Origin: an uncultured virus (IMG/VR IMGVR_UViG_3300033144_007571) | Taxonomy: Duplodnaviria; Heunggongvirae; Uroviricota; Caudoviricetes | Direction: 5' to 3' (one strand) | IMG/VR virus record: IMGVR_UViG_3300033144_007571 | Length of the DNA stretch: 20,000 bases | Part shown: positions 1,460 to 17,775 of the stretch, piece after piece | How the letters are laid out: each line of letters starts with the position of its first letter | Position numbering within the stretch: position 1 is the stretch's first letter | The notes under the pieces: model-generated | The model's database searches: none | What the model was told of the DNA's origin: nothing | The model's input: only the letters and a program-made list of their open reading frames with translations | Program-made: the position numbers and the translations under genes

Positions 1460-1987
1460 ATGGCAATTAGAAAGATAACTATTAAATACATACAAGAAAT
1501 GATAGATCTTGTTGGATTTAAAATGAAGAACCTTAGAATGTGTGAACTAGGAAATCAACTCATTATGGATAATTATGTACCCTTTAAAGTTGCGAAGAAA
1601 TATTATGAATCACTTGGTGTTATACATACTTCAATTGATTGGAATGGTGAAGATGGAGCATTACCTCTTGATCTCAATAATCCTATTTCTATTGGTAAGT
1701 TTGATGTAATTACAAGCGTTGGTTTTATTGAGCATGTTAAAAACGAAGAACAATTAAATGAAAATATACATAACTTAACTGTTGATGGTGGTATTATTAT
1801 TCATATTGCCCCAAAGGTGGGAAGTTATAAAAAACATAAATGTCATAGATGGTATGTTGAAGACTTTTTTTATGATCTTGCTAAAGAAAGAAACTATGAA
1901 ATATTAGATATGGGAATTATTAATCCAAAGAATATGAAAAGTTTTGATTGTATTAGATGTACTTTAAAGAAACTGGGGGAAAAATGA
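1460..1987 (+). CDS. Class I SAM-dependent methyltransferase
   Basis: MCELGNQ (motif I), SIDWNG...LDLN, FDVITSVGFIEHV and GGIIIH. SD AAGGA upstream. Confidence 0.75.
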   Translation: MAIRKITIKYIQEMIDLVGFKMKNLRMCELGNQLIMDNYVPFKVAKKYYESLGVIHTSIDWNGEDGALPLDLNNPISIGKFDVITSVGFIEHVKNEEQLNENIHNLTVDGGIIIHIAPKVGSYKKHKCHRWYVEDFFYDLAKERNYEILDMGIINPKNMKSFDCIRCTLKKLGEK

Positions 1988-2922
1988 AATATTTAATAAC
2001 TGGCGGCTCGGGTTTTATTGGAACAAATTTAATTTTAAAGCTTTTAGAATTAGGCCACGAAGTAACTACTATAGATAAAGAAGACTTAAATGATGCTGTG
2101 CGTGGAGGTGTGATACATCTATTTGCTGATGTTAGTAAAGATGACTTAACTCCATGGTATGAGAAACAAGATGTAGTTATTCATTTAGCAGCACAAAGCG
2201 GAGTAGTACCTTCTATTGAAGATCCAGAGTATAATTTTCATAACAATGTTTTAGGGACTTTTAACTGTTTGGAATCTACAAGAAAAGCTGGAGTAACAAG
2301 ATTTGTATTCGCATCTTCGGGTGGAACTGTTGTTGGAGATTGTGATCCTCCTCTACATGAAGAGTTAGTTCCCAAACCTAGAACTCCATACGGTTGTAGT
2401 AAATTATGTGGAGAAGCATATTGTATGGCATATTCTGCTACATATGGAATAGATGCTGTAGCTTTAAGGTTTTCTAATGTATATGGTCCTCATTCATTAG
2501 CTAAAACTCACAACTTAATTCCTTCGTTTATAATGAACGCTATTGAAGATAAAGTATGTACAATTTATGGAGATGGATCATTTAAAAAAGATTATATTTA
2601 TGTTGAGGATTTGATTCAAGGTATCATACTGGCTTCTATATCTGAAGGGGTAGCAGGAGAAGTTATTCAAATTGCTACTGGTGCTGGAAATGATGTAAAA
2701 ACAATTTTTGATATTATAGAAACATTAGCAGCGAATATTTGTAAGAGAAAATTAAAAGTTGAATATGGCGAAAGTAGATCTGGAGATATTAACTATGATT
2801 ACTGTGATATTAGTAAAGCTGAACGAATTCTTAAGTATTCTCCTAAGCATAATGTATATGATGGGATTGTGAAAACTTTTGAATGGTATACAAAAAATTA
2901 TGGAGGAAATAAGAATGGATAA
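1984..2922 (+). CDS. NAD-dependent NDP-sugar epimerase/dehydratase (GalE/WbpP-like extended SDR)
   Basis: TGGSGFIG, HLAA, ASS, YGCSK (YxxxK), LRFSNVYGP and IYGDG...DYIYVED. Start placed at ATG 1984 (ATGA overlap, GGGGGA SD). Confidence 0.9.
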   Translation: MKYLITGGSGFIGTNLILKLLELGHEVTTIDKEDLNDAVRGGVIHLFADVSKDDLTPWYEKQDVVIHLAAQSGVVPSIEDPEYNFHNNVLGTFNCLESTRKAGVTRFVFASSGGTVVGDCDPPLHEELVPKPRTPYGCSKLCGEAYCMAYSATYGIDAVALRFSNVYGPHSLAKTHNLIPSFIMNAIEDKVCTIYGDGSFKKDYIYVEDLIQGIILASISEGVAGEVIQIATGAGNDVKTIFDIIETLAANICKRKLKVEYGESRSGDINYDYCDISKAERILKYSPKHNVYDGIVKTFEWYTKNYGGNKNG

Positions 2923-4117
2923 TATAATTGTTTTTGGGGGAGATGGTTTTTGTGGATGGCCAACTAGTTTGGGACTTTCTGCTCTCGGTTATAATATAAC
3001 TATTGTTGATAACTTAGTTCGTAGAAAAACAGATATTGAATTGGCATGTGATTCTCTTACTCCAATAAAATCTATTTATAAAAGACTTGAAACATGGAAA
3101 AGAATAACAGGCAAAACAATCCATTTTGAATATATTGATGTAGCAGATCATTATCATCGAGTTTTAACATTAATACAAGATCTCAAACCGAAAGCTATAG
3201 TTCATTTTGCTGAGCAACGAGCTGCACCTTATTCAATGAAATCTCCTTTTCATAAACGATATACTGTAAATAATAATGTTAATGCTACTAATAATATTTT
3301 ATGTGCTATTGTTGAGTCTGGTATTGATGTTCATATGGTTCATTTAGGAACAACTGGATACTATGGATACTCTTCAGTAGGAATGAAAATTCCTGAAGGG
3401 TATTTAAAAGTTAGAGTTGATGTTGAAGGAGTTGAAAAAGAATTAGAAATTATGTATCCTCCACACCCTGGTTCAATTTATCATATGACGAAATGTCAAG
3501 ATGCTATTATGTTTTATTACTACAATAAAAATGATGGAGTACGCATTACAGATTTACATCAAGGAATTGTTTGGGGTACTGAAACAGATGAGACAAAAAT
3601 AGATGATAATCTTATTAACAGGTTTGATTATGATGGAGATTATGGAACAGTTTTAAACAGATTTTTAATGCAAGCTGCTGTTGGTCATCCATTGACAGTT
3701 CACGGTACAGGAGGACAAACTCGAGCATTTATACATATAAAAGATACTGTTAAGTGTGTAAAGATGGCAATAGAAAATCCCCCTGAAAAAGAGGACAAAG
3801 TTAAAATATTTAATCAGACTTCAGAATGTTTAAATATAAAAGATTTGGCATTGAAAATACAATCAATGACTAGATCTCAAGTTAGATATTATAAAAATCC
3901 AAGAAATGAAGATCCAAAAAATGATCTTGAATTTGTGAATGAGGGGTTTAAAAGTTTGGGGTGGAATCCAATTATGTTGGATGATGGTCTTATGATTGAA
4001 ATAAATCAGATTGCAAAAAAATATAGTGGTAGATGTGATAAATCGAAGATTATTGCTACATCTGTTTGGAAAGAAGGAATGGATGTTGATAGAGTAGGTA
4101 GTGAGGTTGAGGTTTAA
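2915..4117 (+). CDS. sqdB: UDP-sulfoquinovose synthase (SqdB/SQD1/Agl3 family)
   Basis: Family motifs GGDGFCGWPT, HFAEQRAAPYSM, HLGT, PGSIYHMTK, TDLHQGIVWG, RFDYDGDYGTVLNRF and HPLTVHGTGGQTRAFIHI. ATG 2915 follows GGAGG; 400 aa. Confidence 0.93.
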   Translation: MDNIIVFGGDGFCGWPTSLGLSALGYNITIVDNLVRRKTDIELACDSLTPIKSIYKRLETWKRITGKTIHFEYIDVADHYHRVLTLIQDLKPKAIVHFAEQRAAPYSMKSPFHKRYTVNNNVNATNNILCAIVESGIDVHMVHLGTTGYYGYSSVGMKIPEGYLKVRVDVEGVEKELEIMYPPHPGSIYHMTKCQDAIMFYYYNKNDGVRITDLHQGIVWGTETDETKIDDNLINRFDYDGDYGTVLNRFLMQAAVGHPLTVHGTGGQTRAFIHIKDTVKCVKMAIENPPEKEDKVKIFNQTSECLNIKDLALKIQSMTRSQVRYYKNPRNEDPKNDLEFVNEGFKSLGWNPIMLDDGLMIEINQIAKKYSGRCDKSKIIATSVWKEGMDVDRVGSEVEV

Positions 4118-4821
4118 TGAAAATTTTAGTTATTGGTTTTCCTAGAAGTGGAACGACTCTAATGTATAGGACAATCAGAAGACATCCACAAATGGATAAA
4201 ATGTTATTTGAAACAAATATGATGAAATTAATAGGAACTCAAAGAGAAAGTAGATTAAATTTAGTATTCCCAAAAGGAAAAAATATTGGAGAAAAAGTTA
4301 TTTATGAAAGAGAGATAATGGGAAAGAAACGTAGTAATGCTCCAACCCCATTTGAATATTGTAAGAGATGGAATAAAATGTTTAAGAAAGAAGCCAGAAT
4401 CATTCAAATTATAAGACACCCTTATGATGTTTGGAACTCTCTTTTAATAAAAAAATATGTACGAAGAGATATAAAATATGCTATCATTAAAATGGAGGAA
4501 AGATACTTTAATTTTGTCCCTACTTATTTTACTGCGATTGATAGATTCAAAAATTGTTTGACTATCAAATATGAAGATATAGTATCAAACCCAGAGATTG
4601 TTATTCCAAAAATTTATAAGCATTGTGGATTGGACCCAAAACACTTCCCTAAAGAAGAAATGAGATCATCAAGACTTTTTGCTTATAAAAGAAAGGGATT
4701 TAGAATTAATGAACCAAGATTGAGAGGTCAAAGAAATAAATTTGTGAAAATAATGAATAAGAATATTGATGAGTGTTTAGAAATACTTAATCAGTTTCCT
4801 GGTCCGGAGTATGAGAAGTGA
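4117..4821 (+). CDS. PAPS-dependent sulfotransferase family protein
   Basis: 5'-PSB loop GFPRSGTT, 3'-PB motif IIRHPYDVWNS and IKYEDIV. Confidence 0.85.
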   Translation: MKILVIGFPRSGTTLMYRTIRRHPQMDKMLFETNMMKLIGTQRESRLNLVFPKGKNIGEKVIYEREIMGKKRSNAPTPFEYCKRWNKMFKKEARIIQIIRHPYDVWNSLLIKKYVRRDIKYAIIKMEERYFNFVPTYFTAIDRFKNCLTIKYEDIVSNPEIVIPKIYKHCGLDPKHFPKEEMRSSRLFAYKRKGFRINEPRLRGQRNKFVKIMNKNIDECLEILNQFPGPEYEK

Positions 4822-5507
4822 GAGTTATAAATACTATAGAAAAAGGACCGTGGTATCGGTATGATTTTTCTGAAAAAAGTGATCATCTAATTATTGGTTT
4901 TGGAAGTATTAGAATGTTTAATCGTCAAAAGAAAAGGGGTTTTGAATGGGATAATTTGTTAAAATATAAATTTGGTCATTTAAAGTTCAATAGTCTATTT
5001 GTTGGAGATGTAAATAACTCTTGGTGGCATACAGATTATGAAGGGTTGCCAGGATATGGTCCTCTTGTTCTAAGAGATTTTCTTTTAAGAAAGATAAAAG
5101 AGTCGGGTGCAACGAAAACTTTATGTTTGGGTGTGTCAATGGGAGGTTATGGAGCAATACTTTTTGGGTGTTTAACTGGAGCAACACAAACTATGTCATT
5201 TTCACCACAGACCAACTTGTCGGAAGGAAGAAGAAGGAGGTCTTTAAGTAGAAAATTTGATGGTTTTGATGTTGATGAAAGGTTCACGGATTTACAAAGA
5301 GTACTTTTAGAACAAAATAATAATAAAACTATTTATAAAATATGGTATGGAAGTCTAAATGGAAATGACAAGAATGCTGCAAATAGAATTTCTAAAGATA
5401 AGAACGTTTTCATATATCCTGTTAAGACTAGGAAACACAATCCAATAAAGCTTGTTTTAAAGTCAGGTGTTTTTAAGAAAGAAATAGAGAGTTTTATTAG
5501 GGGGTAA
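4818..5507 (+). CDS. Alpha/beta hydrolase-fold protein (putative esterase)
   Basis: Nucleophile elbow LGVSMGGYGA (GxSxG), SFSPQT and a C-terminal His. GTG start overlapping the upstream stop. Confidence 0.7.
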   Translation: MRVINTIEKGPWYRYDFSEKSDHLIIGFGSIRMFNRQKKRGFEWDNLLKYKFGHLKFNSLFVGDVNNSWWHTDYEGLPGYGPLVLRDFLLRKIKESGATKTLCLGVSMGGYGAILFGCLTGATQTMSFSPQTNLSEGRRRRSLSRKFDGFDVDERFTDLQRVLLEQNNNKTIYKIWYGSLNGNDKNAANRISKDKNVFIYPVKTRKHNPIKLVLKSGVFKKEIESFIRG

Positions 5508-5509
5508 CT

Positions 5510-5830
5510 ATGGGGTGTACAGAGAATAAAGGAATATGGAGATGTGATGATTGGGTCGACGCATGGGATTTATCTAAATTTTATGGATGTACTGAATCTC
5601 CTAATATTGTAATTGATTTTGATAATATTGATTGTGATGGAGGAACAACCCTAGCAGAAGTAAATCGAAATGGTGAAAGATTTTGGACTAGAGTTATTGA
5701 TTGTCCTAGATGTGAAGTAATTGTAGCAATTGTAATATGTGATTTGGTTTTTGACCATCCATTTTCAAAGGGAGATAGAGTACAATATGAACTAAGGAAT
5801 GTTTATAATATTAGAACAATTGGAGAATAA
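5510..5830 (+). CDS. Hypothetical Cys-rich protein
   Basis: 106 aa ORF in operon, AGGGG SD, CPRC motif. No family recognised. Confidence 0.65.
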   Translation: MGCTENKGIWRCDDWVDAWDLSKFYGCTESPNIVIDFDNIDCDGGTTLAEVNRNGERFWTRVIDCPRCEVIVAIVICDLVFDHPFSKGDRVQYELRNVYNIRTIGE

Positions 5831-5833
5831 AAA

Positions 5834-6208
5834 ATGGTATATTGGTTCACGGGAAAATCTAGTTCAGGAAAAACTGTATATGCTAAAAGACTTAAAAGAG
5901 AATTTGAAATGTCTGGTAAAACAGTTCTTCTTTTGGATGGAGATGAGGTAAGAGATATATTTAAAAATGATAAGTATGAGGACGACGCAAGAGAGGCTCA
6001 TATTATGAGGATTGCTGGGTTTGCTTCAATCGCAGAGAAACAAGGAATCACAGTTATAATTTCATTAGTATCTCCAAAAAAAGAGTGGAGAATGAAGGCA
6101 AGAAAAATGTTTGAAAAATCAATGCTTATTTATATGCCAGGTGGCTTCTTATGGGAGGGATCTACATATGAGGAACCTGACCATGAGGAAATGATGTGTG
6201 AGGGGTAA
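5834..6208 (+). CDS. cysC: Adenylylsulfate (APS) kinase-like, short form lacking the lid
   Basis: YWFTGKSSSGKT P-loop, LLDGDEVR, ISLVSP and YEEP motifs. Only 124 aa; the RDPKGLY lid segment is absent. Confidence 0.8.
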   Translation: MVYWFTGKSSSGKTVYAKRLKREFEMSGKTVLLLDGDEVRDIFKNDKYEDDAREAHIMRIAGFASIAEKQGITVIISLVSPKKEWRMKARKMFEKSMLIYMPGGFLWEGSTYEEPDHEEMMCEG

Positions 6209-7881: not shown

Positions 7882-8736
7882 ATGGATATTAGAGAACCAG
7901 ATGTTATGCATTTTAATTTAAATTATATGAAAGACCCAACAGATAGAAGAGATTTTGCATTTACAAAATCGTTATCAAAGAAAAAATTAAAAAGAGCTTT
8001 ACGAAGAGCTCCAAGAAGGTTAGATCATTCTTTAAATATGAGTCCTGTGAAAAATCAAGGTCGGTTAGGGTCTTGTGTTGGATTTGCTGCTTCTGCAATG
8101 AAAGAATGGCAAGAGCAAGTTGAGCATTTGAAGGAAGTGGAAAAAGGGAAGAAAAATCATAGAGACGACAAATATTATGATCTTTCTGAAGCATGGATAT
8201 ATTGGATGTGTAAGAAAATTGATCCCTGGCCAAATTCTGAGGGAACTTCAATTAGATGCGCTATGAAAGTCCTTAGAAAATTGGGTGTCCCTTGTGAGAA
8301 AGCATGGCCATACAGTGATAGAGTTTATGGTCATCCAAAAAAATGGGCAAGGCTCGTTGCTCGTTGGTCACTGATTCATAGTTATTGGAGAGTGAATAAT
8401 TTAAAGGAGCTTCGACTAGCTCTTTTAAAAGGTCCAGTTGTTATTGGAATTGGGTGTTATGAAGAGATATTCAATGTTGGAAAAAATGGAGTTGTTAAAG
8501 ATCCCGCTAATCCTAATTATTGTTATGGAGGGCATGCTATTTGTGCTGTAGGATATGATAATAAAAGAAAAAGAATTAAGTTTAAAAATAGTTGGGGAAA
8601 ATCCTGGGGTCAAGATGGGTATGGCTATTTAAGCTACAGATATATAAAAAAATATATGTGGGATGCTTGGACTTGTAAAGATTTGAGTGTGACAAAAAAG
8701 ATGCTGAAAAGAACTAAAAAATTGATTGGAGTATAA
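7882..8736 (+). CDS. Papain-like cysteine peptidase (C1 family)
   Basis: NQGRLGSCVGFA (oxyanion Q, catalytic C), GGHAICAVGY (H), FKNSWG (N) and WGQDGYG. Pro-region D..DRRD motif. Confidence 0.92.
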   Translation: MDIREPDVMHFNLNYMKDPTDRRDFAFTKSLSKKKLKRALRRAPRRLDHSLNMSPVKNQGRLGSCVGFAASAMKEWQEQVEHLKEVEKGKKNHRDDKYYDLSEAWIYWMCKKIDPWPNSEGTSIRCAMKVLRKLGVPCEKAWPYSDRVYGHPKKWARLVARWSLIHSYWRVNNLKELRLALLKGPVVIGIGCYEEIFNVGKNGVVKDPANPNYCYGGHAICAVGYDNKRKRIKFKNSWGKSWGQDGYGYLSYRYIKKYMWDAWTCKDLSVTKKMLKRTKKLIGV

Positions 8737-8877
8737 ATGGATATAATAAAGGTATGTTTTAAGCTAATTGGACTAACATTTAAACTGATATTTTTAATGT
8801 TTATGCGCGATTTCTTTTCTCTTTGTATCCAAATATATGATGCGTTTTATCGGATTTTTCAAATAAAAAGGACATAA
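8737..8877 (+). CDS. Small hydrophobic hypothetical protein (46 aa)
   Basis: ATG immediately after the peptidase stop, with GGAG SD inside the peptidase end. Translation MDIIKVCFKLIGLTFKLIFLMFMRDF... Confidence 0.4.
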   Translation: MDIIKVCFKLIGLTFKLIFLMFMRDFFSLCIQIYDAFYRIFQIKRT

Positions 8878-8917
8878 AGGAACAAAAAAATAATAGGATA
8901 TTAAGAAGATTGTTATT

Positions 8918-8948
8918 AAAAAAAGATCCTTTGTAATGGATCCCTTTT
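8918..8948. terminator. Intrinsic terminator between convergent units
   Basis: Minus strand AAAAGGGATCC-attacaaa-GGATCTTTTTTT, with A/T tracts on both sides. A second hairpin GCATAGA/TCTATGC lies at 8949-8976. Confidence 0.7.
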
Positions 8949-8987
8949 GCATAGATTCTGTTCCCAAGCTCTATGCTGCTCGGAGGC

Positions 8988-9140
8988 TTACTCGGCCGGG
9001 TCAGGATCTGAAATCCAAGTCCAAAGACGAGGTTCCCGTTCCTGCTGTCGTTTTTCACAACAGGTGGCTGGACTATTAGGATCAACCACTTTGTCGCAAA
9101 ATTGACACCGGGTTACGAATTGATTGTTAGAGTATGTCAT
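8988..9140 (-). CDS. Small Cys-rich hypothetical protein (50 aa, MTYSNNQFVTRCQFCDKVVDPNSPATCCEKRQQ...)
   Basis: Perfect SD AAGGAGG upstream of ATG 9140, CxxC...CC putative metal site, and terminator hairpins after the stop. Confidence 0.75.
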   Translation of the reverse strand: MTYSNNQFVTRCQFCDKVVDPNSPATCCEKRQQEREPRLWTWISDPDPAE

Positions 9141-9180
9141 ATTTTATATCCTCCTTAGGTTTAGGTTAATATATGTATGA

Positions 9181-9478
9181 AGTCCTATGAAAACTGCTCA
9201 TTTGTTCAGGGATCCCCTAACCTGAGTTGACTATTTCTCTGGGAATTATTTGGGTGTTCCTTTTGGCATAGTCTTGCCTCACCATCCTTTAACGCGGATT
9301 GGTTTTCGGCCACGTTGCTGTAGACTTCCATATCTACACAGTGTGACACCCTGTTAATTGTGGGAACCTTAACGTACCTCCCACTGGACGCCCTATGAAC
9401 TACACAAGGAAACTAACCGCACCGACATAGGGTTCAGTGTTTTGGTTAGCTAAAGGATTTATCAATAATCCCTTTATT
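9181..9478 (-). ncRNA. Candidate large structured RNA with several pseudoknots and group I intron-like elements
   Basis: ORF-free, GC-enriched ~300 nt with at least 8 hand-identified helices and loop-downstream pairings. G-U wobbles favour the minus strand. Starts just downstream of the 14-mer promoter-like motif. Confidence 0.6.
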
Positions 9479-9485
9479 CATATTA

Positions 9486-9499
9486 ATTAATATATATAG
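9486..9499 (-). promoter_or_regulatory. Conserved 14-mer CTATATATATTAAT (putative phage promoter), copy 1
   Basis: Exact copy also at 11200-11213 and 11719-11732. All three are intergenic and upstream of minus-strand units. Confidence 0.65.
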
Positions 9500-9513
9500 A
9501 ATGGAGTTTTATA

Positions 9514-10533
9514 ATGAGAAATTTTTGGTTATTTAGATCTAATATAAAACATTTAGAATATTATCATGAGTATAAAACTTTACAAGAATTTGAAATGAAT
9601 TGTCATGATTATTATATGTTGCTACCATTATGGTTATTGAAAAATGGCTATTTTGATAAAGTTATCATTTGGAGATTATCTAAAGGTACCCACCCTGATA
9701 TAAAATTCGACATTGATGGAAAATATTATATTCAGAGATGGGTTCGAAATTTTAAAGATACATTTGATTATCCTAAACCAGAAATCTCATTTTTTAGAGG
9801 AGGTTTTAGCGAATATGATGCTGTTACAAAACAGAATCCAAAACACTATGGACTCAAGTTATATCTTGGAGCCGGAAGAAGAATAATACCGCAGTGGGGT
9901 GGGAATTATGATGTGTATTTAATGGAAGATGAAAGAGATTTTATAAGAGGACAAAAATGTGGTCCATTTTATAAAACAGCTTCTCCTTATATTTTTCATC
10001 CAATCCCAGATTCGAAGATTAAATATGATATTTGTTGGCCAGCAAATTTTGAACAGATAAGACATAAAGGACATGAGTTCTTTATTAAAATTGTATCTTC
10101 TAGTTCTTTTCTAAAAAAATTAAAAATAGTTCATTGTGGTAACAAACCAGGTGTTGGAAAAAAATTATGTGAAAAATATAATGTAGATAATATAAAATTT
10201 ATGGGACCAGTTGATAGACCTATTTTAAATAAAATTCTTAATCAAAGTAAATTTGGCCTGAATGTTAGTAATTTACAAGATGGATGCCCAAGAGTTTCTA
10301 CTGAAGTTTTAATGTCCGGAACACCCTTAATACTTAGAGATACAGTAAGGTTATTAAAATCATATAGAAAAAAAGGAGTGTTAAATGTAAATCAAGAGAA
10401 TATGGTATACCAAATTATTTCAAATATCTCTTTTTTTAAGAAGCATAAAGAGGTAGTATTTGATGCAATAAATCATGAACTATCATTTGATAATGTGAAC
10501 AAAAAAAATATTGATTTTTGGAAGACCATGTAA
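9514..10533 (+). CDS. GT-B fold glycosyltransferase (GT4-like)
   Basis: C-terminal DGCPRVSTEVLMSGTPLI (D/E-x7-E motif), HKG and FMGPV. GGAG SD. Confidence 0.75.
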   Translation: MRNFWLFRSNIKHLEYYHEYKTLQEFEMNCHDYYMLLPLWLLKNGYFDKVIIWRLSKGTHPDIKFDIDGKYYIQRWVRNFKDTFDYPKPEISFFRGGFSEYDAVTKQNPKHYGLKLYLGAGRRIIPQWGGNYDVYLMEDERDFIRGQKCGPFYKTASPYIFHPIPDSKIKYDICWPANFEQIRHKGHEFFIKIVSSSSFLKKLKIVHCGNKPGVGKKLCEKYNVDNIKFMGPVDRPILNKILNQSKFGLNVSNLQDGCPRVSTEVLMSGTPLILRDTVRLLKSYRKKGVLNVNQENMVYQIISNISFFKKHKEVVFDAINHELSFDNVNKKNIDFWKTM

Positions 10534-11158: not shown

Positions 11159-11199
11159 AAGTTTATCTCCTTTCCAACTGGTTTAGGTTTAGCTCAATT

Positions 11200-11213
11200 A
11201 TTAATATATATAG
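11200..11213 (-). promoter_or_regulatory. Conserved 14-mer CTATATATATTAAT, copy 2
   Basis: Exact repeat 42 nt upstream of ATG 11158. Confidence 0.65.
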
Positions 11214-11231
11214 AACAAAAAAATATCTTGG

Positions 11232-11669: not shown

Positions 11670-11718
11670 AATTGTATTCCTCCCGAAATTGAAGTTTGTG
11701 AAATTCATTATTCTATAA

Positions 11719-11732
11719 ATTAATATATATAG
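11719..11732 (-). promoter_or_regulatory. Conserved 14-mer CTATATATATTAAT, copy 3
   Basis: Exact repeat 50 nt upstream of ATG 11669. Confidence 0.65.
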
Positions 11733-11811
11733 TTGGTTTGATTATAATGGATGATTTTCGGTTGATTTTTTTTATAATGGGAACATAATAATAAAATGAA
11801 AGGAGTGATAA

Positions 11812-12369
11812 ATGGGTGAAAAGTATGATCTTTTAGTATTATTTAGCGGTGGTGCTGATAGTGTATTGATGATCCAAATGGCAAAACTTATGAATAAAGA
11901 CCCATATTGTGTTGTTATTGATTATGAGCAACTTCATCAACAAGAGCTTGATGCAGCATATGATTATTTGAGGGAAGAGGGAATTGATTGGCAAACTGTA
12001 AAAATATCTGGACTTAAAATTAATAGTGGATTAACTGGTAGTGGAGAAAAAAATGAGAGTGGTGAAGTTCATGAAATGTATGTACCAGGGAGAAATACTA
12101 TATTTATTAGTATAGCTTTTAGTATTGCAGAAAATCTGGGAATTGATACGATTTGGCATGGCGCAGACTATACAGATAGACTCAATTTTTTCCCTGATTG
12201 TTATCAGAATTATTTCGTTGCTTTTAATGAACTTCTTCAACATGCAGGGCCAAAAGACATTGAAGTTGAAGCTCCACTGTTAGGACTTTCAAAAGAAAAT
12301 ATTTTAAAAATTTTAGAGTATTATGGGATTGATATGGAAAAAATCTTTAGCGGATATGGAGACTTATAA
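11812..12369 (+). CDS. queC: QueC-like 7-cyano-7-deazaguanine synthase, lacking the C-terminal Zn site
   Basis: PP-loop LFSGGADS, DYEQ.H..EL, YVPGRNTIF, FPDC and APLL..SK. Ends at IFSGYGDL without the Cys cluster. Confidence 0.82.
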   Translation: MGEKYDLLVLFSGGADSVLMIQMAKLMNKDPYCVVIDYEQLHQQELDAAYDYLREEGIDWQTVKISGLKINSGLTGSGEKNESGEVHEMYVPGRNTIFISIAFSIAENLGIDTIWHGADYTDRLNFFPDCYQNYFVAFNELLQHAGPKDIEVEAPLLGLSKENILKILEYYGIDMEKIFSGYGDL

Positions 12370-12710
12370 TGGACTTTAATGAATATCAAATAGCAACACG
12401 AGAAACTGATTTGGGTACTGGTGAAAGACATAATATTAGTCCAACATGGTTATATTATGTTTTGGGCGTAGGTGGTGAAACAGGAGAATTATTAGAAAAA
12501 ATTAAGAAGCATTTTAGAGATGATTATGGAGTTATGACAGAAGAAAAAAAGAAAGAAATAATAAAAGAGATGGGTGATATACAATGGTATATTGCAAGAT
12601 TAGCTGATGTGTTGGAAATTAAGTTTGATGATGTAGCAACCACAAACATTACAAAACTTTTAGATAGAAAGAAAAGAAAAAAACTAAAGGGGAGTGGAGA
12701 CAACAGATGA
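12369..12710 (+). CDS. MazG-like nucleotide pyrophosphohydrolase
   Basis: LGVGGETGELLEKIKK...KEMGDIQWY (ExxE...ExxD), N..KL..R and GSGDNR. Confidence 0.88.
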   Translation: MDFNEYQIATRETDLGTGERHNISPTWLYYVLGVGGETGELLEKIKKHFRDDYGVMTEEKKKEIIKEMGDIQWYIARLADVLEIKFDDVATTNITKLLDRKKRKKLKGSGDNR

Positions 12711-13141
12711 AAACAAATATTGAATATTTAGCGATTCCATATACTGATGATAGTGAAGAAGTTATGGATTTCAGAGCAGCGGTGTCGGATATTATTTGTG
12801 CAGATTTAATGAATAAGGGAAGATATATTTATGCTCCTATTAGTAGTTGCCATCATATTGCTAAGAAATATGGGCTTCCAAGAAACTGGGAATTCTGGAA
12901 AGGAATGGACGAAGAATATGTTAGTATGTGTAAAACTATTATCATTGTTACTCTTCCAGGGTGGGAGACATCCACCGGAGTTACAGCAGAAAAAGCAATT
13001 GCAGAAAGAGAGGGAACTGAAATTGAAAAACTAGATCCAACCCCCTATGTTGAACAATTAAAGAAGGAAAAACCCGTACCACCTGGAGATCGAATACTTC
13101 AAGAAGGAGAACAACCACCACTTAGAAAGGAGAATGAATAA
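12707..13141 (+). CDS. DUF1937-like / nucleoside 2-deoxyribosyltransferase-fold protein
   Basis: YLAIPY, IYAPISSCHHIA, WEFW...D and LPGWETSTGVTAE motifs. Confidence 0.75.
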   Translation: MKTNIEYLAIPYTDDSEEVMDFRAAVSDIICADLMNKGRYIYAPISSCHHIAKKYGLPRNWEFWKGMDEEYVSMCKTIIIVTLPGWETSTGVTAEKAIAEREGTEIEKLDPTPYVEQLKKEKPVPPGDRILQEGEQPPLRKENE

Positions 13142-13332
13142 TGATTTGGGATGAGAAAGCGAGACAAAAGGAAGATGAGGGTTTAAGAAATGGTACCCTT
13201 AGAATGTGTCCTAAATGTCTCGAGATCATACTAAGAACTTCACCAATATGTGAGCATTGTAATACAAATTTGGAAGAGCTTGGATATTGGATAAAGAAAT
13301 AGAAAAGGAGAATGAATAATGACGTGGGATGA
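13126..13332 (+). repeat. 29-bp direct repeat (27/29 identical) covering the RBS and first codons of two adjacent genes
   Basis: AAAGGAGAATGAATAATGA-tt-TGGGATGA (13126-13154) versus AAAGGAGAATGAATAATGA-cg-TGGGATGA (13304-13332). Confidence 0.85.
13141..13302 (+). CDS. Small zinc-ribbon protein (53 aa)
   Basis: Manually translated MIWDEKARQK...RMCPKCLEIILRTSPICEHCN... with CxxC-x10-CxxC. AAAGGAG SD. Confidence 0.75.
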   Translation: MIWDEKARQKEDEGLRNGTLRMCPKCLEIILRTSPICEHCNTNLEELGYWIKK

Positions 13333-13861
13333 ATATTATCACAAACTTTGTGTAACTGTAGCAAGCAATACAAAATGTTTATCAAGAACTATTGGCGCTG
13401 TATTGGTAAGAGATAAAAGTATAATTTCTACGGGTTATAATGGACCTCCAAGAGGTGTACCACATTGTGGCTCAAGATTTATAATTGATCCTAAACTTAG
13501 AGCGCTTCTTATATCAAAAGATATGAATCCTAATGATCCAGCGCTTCACGATACATGTCCTAGATATGTTGCAGGTTTTAAATCTGGAGAAGGGCTTGAA
13601 TGGTGTGTAGCAGGACATGCTGAAAGAAATGCTATAGTAAATGCAGCTAGATCAGGTGCTTGCACTATGGGTGCTACTCTTTATATGGACTGCGGAATTC
13701 CTTGTACTCCATGTTTGGTTGAAATTATCAATTCAGGTATAGAAGAAATAGTTGTTACGAAAATGATATACTATGATCTTTCAGCAGAATATACTCTAGA
13801 AAATAGTGATCTAAGATGCAGAGTTTATAGTCATTTAATAGGTGAACGAAATGAGAACTAA
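13319..13861 (+). CDS. dCMP deaminase (ComEB/dCMP deaminase family)
   Basis: WDEYY, CLSRTIGAVLV, STGYNGPP, HAERNAI and PCTPC. Confidence 0.92.
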   Translation: MTWDEYYHKLCVTVASNTKCLSRTIGAVLVRDKSIISTGYNGPPRGVPHCGSRFIIDPKLRALLISKDMNPNDPALHDTCPRYVAGFKSGEGLEWCVAGHAERNAIVNAARSGACTMGATLYMDCGIPCTPCLVEIINSGIEEIVVTKMIYYDLSAEYTLENSDLRCRVYSHLIGERNEN

Positions 13862-14015
13862 AAAAGATTTATTGTATGAACTTAAAACTGTACAACAAGT
13901 TATAAAAAATAGTAAACGAACTGAGATTGAAATAAATCATGTTGTGGGAGAAGTTCTGATTGATATTAGAGATATTTTGAAGGATATTTGTGATTATTTA
14001 AAAGGGGATCTCTAA
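13851..14015 (+). CDS. Small hypothetical protein (54 aa)
   Basis: Manually translated ORF MRTKKDLLYEL...VLIDIRDIL... filling the gap. AGGTG SD. Confidence 0.6.
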   Translation: MRTKKDLLYELKTVQQVIKNSKRTEIEINHVVGEVLIDIRDILKDICDYLKGDL

Positions 14016-14016
14016 G

Positions 14017-14376
14017 ATGAAAAAAATAGGAGTAATAGGAACTAGGCGTAGAGATACCTTTCTGGACTACAAACCAGTTCAAGAAGCTTTCTATGAAATA
14101 TATGAAGATAGGGATTGGGTAGTATCTGGAGGATGTCCAGAAGGTGGAGATCGTTTTGCTGAAAAAATGGCAAAAAAATATGGTATGCCTATTTTAATAT
14201 TTTATCCCAATTGGAGAAAATATTCTAAAGGAGCTGGATTTATAAGGAATACAGATATAGCTGAAAACTCTGATATAATTATTGCCTGTGTTGCCGAAGA
14301 TAGAACTGGCGGAACTGAGGATACTATCAAAAAGTTTTTGAAAGATCATGATGAAAAGGATTTGATTATTGTATGA
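14017..14376 (+). CDS. SLOG superfamily protein (YspA/DUF2493, DprA-like Rossmann fold)
   Basis: [31 protein letters not shown] and TGGTEDTI. Confidence 0.82.
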
Positions 14377-14744
14377 AAAAAGAGCTATTGTTTTCAGTAA
14401 CCAGAAAAGATCTGAAAGTTCAAACTTTTAAGTCTGGTGGTAAGGGCGGACAACATCAAAACAAAACCGATTCTGGAGTTAGAATAATTCATTCAGAGAG
14501 TGGTGCAGTTGGTGAAAGCAGAGAAGAACGAAGTCAACATCGGAACAAAAAAATAGCATTGAAAAGATTAGTTAAACATCCAAAATTTAAGATATGGAAC
14601 TCAAGAAAATGTTTTGAGATAATAGAAGGAAAAACTATAGAGCAGATAGTCGATGAAATGATGGATGAAAAAAATCTCAAGTTTGAGGTAAAGGAAGAAG
14701 GAAAATGGACAAAAGTGGAAAGCCAAGAAGAAATGAAGAGTTAA
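14373..14744 (+). CDS. Class I release-factor domain protein (GGQ; ArfB/PrfH-like peptidyl-tRNA hydrolase)
   Basis: [23 protein letters not shown]...[15 protein letters not shown]. Only the catalytic domain is present. Confidence 0.88.
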
Positions 14745-14896
14745 TTGAAGCTAAAGAAGCAATAAAGAAAGAAATGGTTAACTTACAAAATATAAGTCCT
14801 ATATTAGTATTTTACCCTACTATTATTGATGCTATTGATGAATTGTTAGAGGTAAGAAAAAAGGACAATGAATATTGGTTTTTAATAGACCGATAA
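14705..14896 (+). CDS. Hypothetical protein (63 aa)
   Basis: ORF fills the gap in a co-directional operon. Purine-rich SD; start uncertain. Confidence 0.55.
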
Positions 14897-14907
14897 AGGG
14901 GAAATAA

Positions 14908-15390
14908 ATGAAAAACTATCAGAGAAATATAGATGAAGAAGCACTGATGGGAAAAGAGACCGCTGCTAGATTTAGTGAAGGAAAGGTCAGACATGATTTA
15001 GTACCATCATGGCCAGTAGATGAGGTAGCAAAAGTCTATACATATGGTACTATTAAATATGATGATGATAATTGGCGAAAAGGACTTGCGTGGAAGAAGA
15101 ATGTAATTGGTCCTTTATTTAGACATCTATGGAAATGGGTTCGTGGAGAAATATTAGATGAAGAAAGCGGTTGTTTACATCTTGCAATGGTTGTTTGGCA
15201 ATGTTTTGCTTTAATGGAATATGAAAGATGTAAGGTAGGTCAAGATGATAGAAATCCATATGATTTAACTTTGATGGATAAAGAAGAACAAGAACGACGG
15301 ATAAAAATGTGGAAAATATTAGCAAGAGAAGATAGACTTGATGAATATAATGGGTTAGATAATAATTTAAAAAATAAGAACAAAAAATAA
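14908..15390 (+). CDS. dATP/dGTP diphosphohydrolase domain protein (DUF5664-like)
   Basis: RFSEGKVRHDLVP, EVAKVYTYGTIKYDDDNWRKG, RHLWKW..GE..DEESG..HLA. Confidence 0.85.
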   Translation: MKNYQRNIDEEALMGKETAARFSEGKVRHDLVPSWPVDEVAKVYTYGTIKYDDDNWRKGLAWKKNVIGPLFRHLWKWVRGEILDEESGCLHLAMVVWQCFALMEYERCKVGQDDRNPYDLTLMDKEEQERRIKMWKILAREDRLDEYNGLDNNLKNKNKK

Positions 15391-17087: not shown

Positions 17088-17304
17088 AAATGCAGCACAG
17101 TGTAGACAGTGTGGAGATATAATAGAATCTACATATCGTCACGACTTTGTATTTTGTATATGCAGATCTATTTATGTGGATGGTGGTAAAGATTATTTGC
17201 GAAGGGGTGGGGTTCTTGAAGATTTAATTGAACTATCAGAAGTTATAGATGAAATATCAGATATTATTGCAGAATATAAAGAGTCTGAGATAGGGACAGA
17301 TTAA
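17077..17304 (+). CDS. Conserved phage zinc-binding hypothetical protein
   Basis: RNAAQCRQCGDIIES..RHDFVFCICRSIYVDGG..YLRR, a motif familiar from phage proteins. Confidence 0.75.
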   Translation: MIIRNAAQCRQCGDIIESTYRHDFVFCICRSIYVDGGKDYLRRGGVLEDLIELSEVIDEISDIIAEYKESEIGTD

Positions 17305-17305
17305 G

Positions 17306-17340
17306 AGAGGTATGACCCTCTATGTGAGGATCATACCTCT
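17306..17340. terminator. Strong hairpin between convergent transcription units
   Basis: AGAGGTATGA-C-CCTC-tatgt-GAGG-A-TCATACCTCT: 14 bp with one mismatch, followed by ATTTT. Confidence 0.75.
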
Positions 17341-17349
17341 ATTTTACGT

Positions 17350-17427
17350 TGGAGGCGATGGTAGGATTTGAACCTACGCATAATGGTTTTGCAGACCACC
17401 CCTTTTTGACCACTCAGGCACATCGCC
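17350..17427 (-). tRNA. tRNA-Cys (GCA)
   Basis: GGCGATG/CATCGCC acceptor, anticodon loop CTGCAAA, T arm GTAGG-TTCAAAT-CCTAC, U73 and encoded CCA. Confidence 0.95.
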
Positions 17428-17436
17428 TTTAAATTT

Positions 17437-17775
17437 TTAATGTTGTAGATTTTTGTCCTCATTTAAAACTATTTTTCCTTTAATATGTTTTGTTTTAGAT
17501 GGTGACAACACTTCTATATTTAGTATAGACTTCTCTCCTTGTTGTTCTAATATTTCTGTAAATTTTGTTAGTTCTGTACTTGCAGATAATAGAATATGAG
17601 GATCTTTCATTCCCTCTAGATTAATTAAGTTAAATAAACAAAGAATTAATCCAGAAGCTTTTTCAGTTACTTCGTCTTCTGTATCATCTTCTTTTGATAC
17701 TTTAAACAATTCGTGAATTGCTTGCTTAATATAATCTATACCATTTTTGAAATGGTTTTCGGAATTTTCAACCAT
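17437..17775 (-). CDS. Hypothetical protein, paralogue A
   Basis: AAGGAG SD; shares motifs with 17789-18085. Confidence 0.75.
   Translation of the reverse strand: MVENSENHFKNGIDYIKQAIHELFKVSKEDDTEDEVTEKASGLILCLFNLINLEGMKDPHILLSASTELTKFTEILEQQGEKSILNIEVLSPSKTKHIKGKIVLNEDKNLQH

Follow-up and report, generated by a model that had tools for sequence, protein, structure and literature searches.

We found that the stretch at positions 9181-9478 of the window (the whole 20,000-nt piece of DNA that was analysed) can be read as a folded 5' leader belonging to a moron-like cassette for a tiny Cys-rich protein, a tentative reading to which we assign a probability of roughly 45%. On this reading, a small transcription unit would have entered the genome of a jumbo-type phage between two genes, with its orientation opposite to theirs. 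On the minus strand, the parts follow one another as a promoter motif (9502-9473), about 300 nt of a hairpin-rich RNA, a strong ribosome-binding site (RBS), a 50-aa ORF (9140-8988), and a hairpin with a terminator (8975-8918). The block that holds them is absent from a syntenic relative, and both the promoter motif and the small protein are conserved. The RNA would be made from the 9502-9473 promoter, would adopt all or part of the fold described below, and would act through it in cis on its own message, not as a ribozyme; the likely effects are protection of the 5' end and setting of the amount of the small protein. The features used in the argument are as follows:

9473-9502, minus strand: promoter motif of the phage group, ATTCTATATATATTAATTAATATGAATAAA, located with a weight matrix; its final bases are shared with the first RNA hairpin.
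9181-9478, minus strand: non-coding, GC-enriched, multi-hairpin stretch of about 300 nt (checked helices, z-score of the minimum free energy (MFE), GC content, no Rfam match).
9252-9351, minus strand: long-range helix GGGTGT (9351-9346)/ACACCC (9257-9252), the "P3/P4-like" part, from complementarity; the outer helix is in the MFE fold, too.
9229-9273, minus strand: "P7-like" crossing pair of GACTA(T) (9273-9268) with (A)TAGTC (9234-9229), from sequence complementarity.
9150-9156, minus strand: Shine-Dalgarno sequence AAGGAGG, 9 nt ahead of the ATG of the small ORF, as read from the sequence.
8988-9140, minus strand: 50-aa Cys-rich ORF P0001, with the pattern CQFCD..VV...A.CC.KR..E..P.LWTW conserved with P0002.
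8918-8975, minus strand: hairpin 8975-8950, then A-tract/U-tract hairpin 8948-8918 (7-bp and 11-bp stems in the MFE fold).
8737-9509, no strand assigned: block of about 770 bp, present in the window and missing in the syntenic locus L052 (locus comparison).
8737-8877, plus strand: 46-aa hydrophobic ORF that uses the former RBS-ATG of the downstream gene, without a Pfam match.

The leader reading is backed by the promoter, the RBS together with the conserved ORF, the terminator, the insertion, the GC content, the fold stability (z = -3.06) and the lack of any known RNA family that fits; it is weakened by the lack of an RNA homologue, by moderate fold statistics, and by an ORF that is as GC-rich as the stretch itself.

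The window derives from a large (jumbo-type) uncultured phage. A near-mode blastn comparison of the whole window to 50,697 deposited phage records gave no match, and its closest relatives, IMG/VR contigs 130-277 kb in length, have a papain-like peptidase that is 57-59% identical at 8 of 11 loci and 34-35% identical at the other three. Elsewhere in the window, two nucleotide-sugar epimerases/dehydratases are clustered with a sulfotransferase and an APS kinase (1957-6208), which suggests a phage-encoded chemistry of sulphated sugars. Another region (11812-15390) contains a run of genes for the nucleotide pool and DNA modification, i.e., QueC, MazG, a DUF1937 deoxyribosyltransferase-like protein and dCMP deaminase, as well as a SLOG-family protein, a protein with an RF-1 domain (ArfB-like) and one with the N-domain of dATP/dGTP diphosphohydrolase.

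The promoter motif was analyzed using a weight matrix derived from nine instances in related phage records. Exactly three sites in the window score above 12 bits, all of them on the minus strand (11735, 11216 and 9502, the last with 18.4 bits). The 20-mer at 9500-9481 (minus strand) has four matches at up to three mismatches, compared to 0.07 expected, with copies at 11214 and 11733; each of these two sites is located about 45 nt ahead of the ATG of a minus-strand gene. In the relatives G001 and G004-G007, the promoter string has 10-20 BLAST matches per record. The motif CTATATATATTAATTAATGAATA (window positions 9473-9502, 11187-11216 and 11706-11735, minus strand) is also common to the 130-277-kb IMG/VR relatives (L052, L063-L078), where nearly all matches are on one strand, each about 35-55 nt ahead of an RBS. 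This recurrence in the window and in the relatives indicates that the conserved promoter motif is real. Thus, the statement of the earlier note that the RNA region begins right after a conserved promoter motif is confirmed by the three-site result of the matrix, by the 20-mer expected only 0.07 times, and by the matches in relatives. Leaders that follow the motif elsewhere have a length of about 35-55 nt.

An exhaustive phmmer search with the small ORF, P0001, among 1.84 billion representatives returned P0002 (45 aa) as the sole match, with an E-value of 3.2e-6 and 18 identical residues out of 35; P0002 is encoded on one JGI contig of 2,632 nt. A profile search gave the same single match and nothing further, and a word search with P0001 gave no match. 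The one IMG/VR locus that matched the alignment of P0001 and P0002 was discarded as spurious (18 terminal residues of a 156-aa ORF), and the 93 matches of the small-protein pattern in genome contigs included 0 relatives. Given the homologue P0002, we regard the small protein as real.

The hairpin at 8948-8918, the plus-strand version of which was also reported by the terminator scan, is predicted to be able to act as a bidirectional intrinsic terminator. The same scan found no terminator-like site between the RNA stretch and the small ORF. A second promoter immediately before the small ORF was considered and rejected, the promoter-like string there scoring below 12 bits. With neither a second promoter nor an intervening terminator, the small ORF and the stretch probably share one transcript; the simplest reading is a single predicted transcript of about 560 nt, the first 340 nt of which are untranslated. 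The suggestion that the RNA is stand-alone therefore has to be given up: between it and the conserved 50-aa ORF with its strong RBS there is no terminator, and it is better described as the 5' part of the transcript of this ORF. In the MFE fold, the RBS of the small ORF lies within a weak local AU-rich hairpin. Among public runs, no RNA run containing the stretch is listed.

The limits of the inserted block were defined by comparison to L052, the only one of 11 loci of relatives with synteny to the window on either side. There, 31 nt separate the end of the peptidase gene (4795) from the start of a 343-aa gene (4827), whereas 777 nt lie between the homologous peptidase and 339-aa genes of the window. 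An RBS-ATG sequence is present in two copies, one on each side of the block: GGAGTATAAATG at 8726-8739 and GGAGTTTTATAATG at 9503-9516. The copy GGAGTATAAATG starts the downstream gene in L052 and opens the 46-aa hydrophobic ORF in the window, while GGAGTTTTATAATG starts the 339-aa gene; the 46-aa ORF may be a by-product of the insertion. In contigs of relatives from public runs, the similarity to the window ends at 9509/9510. A back-joint of 9502 to 8946 in one of these runs (X3) was examined as a possible deletion of the cassette and rejected, as it is a relative's hairpin-terminator-promoter junction. This contig of a relative carries a copy of the post-ORF hairpin, followed by 40 nt with a terminator-like hairpin and by the promoter motif (window positions 8946-8984 and 9480-9502), which suggests that the phage group can reuse hairpin, terminator and promoter as modules.

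Morons, a concept from the HK97 and HK022 literature, are reportedly insertions within a phage operon, each placed between two genes and made up of a promoter, a gene and a terminator. The block fits this definition, because it has a predicted promoter and a predicted terminator of its own, has an odd composition, and is absent from a relative; its opposite orientation is a further likeness. It differs from typical morons in two respects: it consists mostly of a 300-nt folded untranslated stretch, its sole gene being 50 aa long, and its promoter is the phage group's own motif and not a host-type one.

As to coding potential, the placement of the stretch outside any host gene is confirmed by the absence of minus-strand ORFs of at least 40 aa between 9349 and 9919. 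No convincing frame was found in the stretch under table 11, under table 4, or with TAG or TAA read as Q; its stop-free frames have no Pfam match, and a 68-aa stop-free frame used as a query found no homologue. Since alternative codes, Pfam and the homologue search of the frames all came back empty, the stretch is considered non-coding.

The comparison to known RNA families was performed using the 4227 covariance models of Rfam 15, which include riboswitches, small ribozymes, GOLLD, ROOL, GIR1 and tmRNA. At gathering thresholds, the only matches in the window are its two tRNA genes, and ARAGORN, which was also run, did not find a tmRNA. With the cut-off relaxed to E<=10, the 901 nt at 8800-9700 and the 296 nt at 9185-9480 gave only chance rows of 12-18 bits (DGCR5, STnc150, ceN30 and lincRNA-p21). 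No described RNA family fits the stretch, consistent with the novelty claimed for it in the earlier note. Rfam contains several large phage-associated ncRNAs, namely GOLLD, ROOL, raiA and HEARO. Like the stretch, these are GC-enriched ornate ncRNAs of phage DNA near tRNA genes; compared to them, the stretch is shorter, is located immediately ahead of an ORF, and has no Rfam match.

Homologues of the RNA were sought with the complete sequence, with patterns made of its Q-, R- and S-like strings, and with R1, a covariance model built from the candidate core. Distant-mode blastn of 901 nt against 50,697 phage records gave no match, and an exact 22-mer had 0 loci in IMG/VR. The R..S pattern was found at 17 IMG/VR loci, which were rejected as none has the flanks of the candidate and Rfam gives only a tRNA; the Q..R..S pattern was found at two identical IMG/VR loci unrelated to the candidate, which were likewise set aside. 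Metagenome contigs contained 23 loci with the Q..R..S pattern. The most candidate-like families among them (L042; L030/32/43/45) were rejected because they lie inside long ORFs, and Rfam had 0 hits on 20 of the 23 loci (duplicates L044, L046 and L049 omitted). Genome contigs contained another 23 loci with this pattern. The loci scanned with the R1 model were 17 of the 23 from metagenomes (duplicates omitted), the 23 from genome contigs and eight of relatives; the model recovered only the window itself (207.6 bits), the next best scores being 15.5 and 12.9 bits, and it had a match in 0 of 5 whole related phage records. Pieces identical to the stretch are present in three public DNA runs with 0 differences, so that they offer no natural variation to use. 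Since no RNA homologue was found in any collection searched, no base pair is backed by covariation.

These results bear on the possibility that the stretch is a new ncRNA, acting in trans or binding protein and unrelated to group I introns, which would be either processed from the transcript or assembled into an RNP with the Cys-rich protein. Its size, its GC enrichment in an AT-rich phage, its several possible pseudoknots and the lack of a known family are what one would expect of such an RNA, and it is linked to a conserved tiny protein whose conserved residues include basic and aromatic ones. However, nothing between the RNA and the ORF signals a 3' end, and there is neither a homologue nor covariation. 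The protein itself does not help: P0001 has no Pfam family, its AlphaFold model is of low confidence (pLDDT 56.9), neither of the two provides a link to RNA binding, and the Atlas lead to NinF is weak (133 shared features). We therefore regard a trans-acting or protein-bound RNA as improbable.

Turning to the structure, all 13 complementary pairs listed in the earlier note (13/13) were found at their minus-strand positions, as were the strings AATCCGC at 9300-9294 and CTGAACAAATG at 9209-9199. The long-range helix GGGTGT/ACACCC encloses the hairpins 9338-9319 and 9316-9291, the latter containing AATCCGC, as well as the GGCA/TGCC mini-hairpin at 9278-9265. Four G-U pairs in the listed minus-strand helices correspond to A-C mismatches on the opposite strand, a point in favour of the leader reading. 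The drawing of the complete fold stands only in part: its pairs are present, but they are not all compatible. GACTAT (9273-9268) and TGCC (9268-9265) share the base 9268, and full formation of both is thus impossible. In the MFE fold, CATAGGG (9397-9391) pairs locally with CCTTGTG, in competition with the pseudoknot claimed for it. The linker of the GTTAA/TTAAC pseudoknot is only 2 nt (AA) across a 6-bp stem, and we consider this pseudoknot sterically doubtful, a judgement drawn from general pseudoknot geometry and not from a tool result.

The minus strand of the stretch has an MFE of -91.8 kcal/mol, with z = -3.06 and 0 of 100 shuffles folding equally well. For the plus strand, z = -2.44 and 2 of 100 shuffles are equal; thus, the minus strand folds better. 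A second statistic, the sum of pairings of at least 5 nt between loops of MFE hairpins and downstream sequence, was reached in 39 of 500 dinucleotide shuffles; this sum leaves out the third, P7-like pseudoknot because its hairpin is absent from the MFE fold. Among 790 sliding windows of 300 nt, the composition-corrected fold stability of the stretch has a rank of 13-21. The strongest outlier in fold stability, on both strands, is the region 17100-17600 around tRNA-Cys (17350-17427), which exceeds the stretch 9181-9478 and in which Rfam finds the tRNA only. Overall, for one sequence, the fold statistics are moderately beyond chance. The GC content of the stretch is 44-49%, compared to 18-30% nearby; over 8950-9450, it is 44-54%, compared to 18-30% in adjacent bins. 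As the rise spans the 50-aa ORF, too, it may reflect a foreign origin and is no specific evidence for structure.

The same figures define the strongest competitor of the leader reading, namely that the 300 nt are non-functional filler, transcribed or not, that the cassette brought along from a donor richer in GC; the helices would be those that any sequence of such a length with 45% GC offers. Consistent with filler, the adjoining small ORF is equally raised in GC, the pseudoknot score is matched by 39/500 shuffles, the stability of the stretch is not the top outlier of the window, and no homologue was found in phage records, IMG/VR, metagenome contigs or genome contigs, the stretch being absent from five related phage records as well. 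Conversely, filler would not be expected to have a z of -3.06 with 0/100 shuffles as stable, or a minus strand more stable than the plus strand, and a 300-nt spacer between promoter and RBS is unusual compared to the ~35-55 nt of other leaders. On balance, we consider filler possible but rather unlikely.

The earlier note had also pointed to phage group I introns. Short strings similar to the Q, R and S elements do occur in group I order, AAUCCGC (Q), CAAGACUA (R) and GAGAAAUAGUC (S); the P7-like strings resemble AGACUA and AUAUAGUC of the RF00028 consensus, and the three elements are collinear with this consensus, as had been proposed. GGGTGT/ACACCC and GACTA/TAGTC exist and cross in the manner of P3 and P7, in one sequence only. 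The stretch resembles the T4 introns td, nrdB and nrdD (IA2, RF00028) in the order of Q, R and S, in the possible crossing of P3-like and P7-like pairs, in a hairpin after P7', and in a length of about 280 nt. If these similarities reflect descent, the 5' region of the small gene would contain a degenerate or re-purposed group I core (P3, P4, P7 and P9) capable of splicing, cleavage or GIR1-like capping. Such a group I-derived ribozyme, which we consider very unlikely, could account for the collinear strings (a Q-R-S triple occurs in 4/2000 block-shuffled windows), for the P3-like helix that surrounds a P4-like hairpin and crosses the P7-like pair, and for the hairpin directly after P7'. A published account (PMC12880540) describes jumbo phages as able to hold many small group I introns, which there interrupt genes; a search of the five related phage records found group I introns in 0 of 5 at E<=1. 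It should be noted that a Q-R-S triple at 0.2% per window is expected to yield about 500 chance cases over about 250,000 windows.

The covariance models speak against this kinship in both directions. The RF00028 model, with a gathering threshold of 50 bits, returned no row at E<=10 for the 901 nt (8800-9700) or the 296 nt (9185-9480), whereas the three T4 introns used as a positive control scored 105.3, 40.3 and 35.7 bits. In the reciprocal comparison, R1 was applied without filters to the three T4 intron loci and produced 24 hits at E<=10, all noise, the best of which (6.8 bits) was outside the introns; the best score at any T4 intron was 5.0 bits (E = 2.1), at the core of L021.

The architecture of the candidate also departs from that of group I introns. 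The gap between P7 and P3' is 10 nt, compared to the usual 0-1 nt or P7.1/7.2 hairpins. Instead of P4-P5-P6, the candidate has a P4-like hairpin (9316-9291), the loop of which measures 12 nt, without a nested P5 and without P6, and an extra hairpin (9338-9319) is located between P3 and P4. P8 is missing, only 18 nt (AAAUAAUUCCCAGAGAAA) being available from ACACCC to TAGTC, and the G-site is non-canonical, with A-A beside the G-C of P7. Searches for a P1 with U-G plus a matching P10 and for exons found none: there is no upstream minus-strand ORF, and the promoter ends a few bases before the RNA. One U-G in the hairpin labelled b could mimic P1; no matching P10 is present at any G near 9199. The caveats that had accompanied the proposal, i.e., no local P8, A-A by the G-site and no interrupted gene, hold. 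GIR1, the lariat-capping ribozyme, is a group I-like RNA that precedes an ORF in twin-ribozyme introns; Einvik et al. 1998 is said to be the reference for it. The candidate is similar to GIR1 in that a group I-like core would be located upstream of an ORF and not within a coding sequence. However, GIR1 is eukaryotic, is found inside a larger intron, and keeps P4-P6 and P8, whereas the candidate region has no Rfam match at E<=10. We conclude that the stretch does not belong to the group I family, and the resemblance, which consists of three short strings and one crossing helix, is taken as convergence or chance.

The proposal that the RNA is ribozyme-like or a new large ncRNA concerns a single sequence with a plausible fold and moderate fold statistics, and the new part is the genomic context of the stretch, the leader of a small ORF in an inserted block. 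The boldest version of the proposal is a free-standing, re-purposed group I core that has kept P3, P4, P7 and P9 without P5, P6 and P8, is held together by new pseudoknots, is transcribed from a jumbo-phage promoter, and processes or gates the message of a tiny zinc-finger-like gene that follows it. We consider this version highly improbable; if true, it would be the first RNA of a bacterial virus to correspond to the lariat-capping (GIR1) ribozyme that precedes an ORF in eukaryotes, and would mean that, in such a virus, the core of an intron can be put to new use away from a gene. The main practical value lies in a defined promoter motif for an uncultured group of jumbo phages and in a clearly delimited insertion. 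If the fold of the leader is real, the insertion would be a phage cassette that has an RNA structure, and not a protein, as its main cargo, and that is tied to a two-member family of Cys-rich proteins of 45-50 aa.
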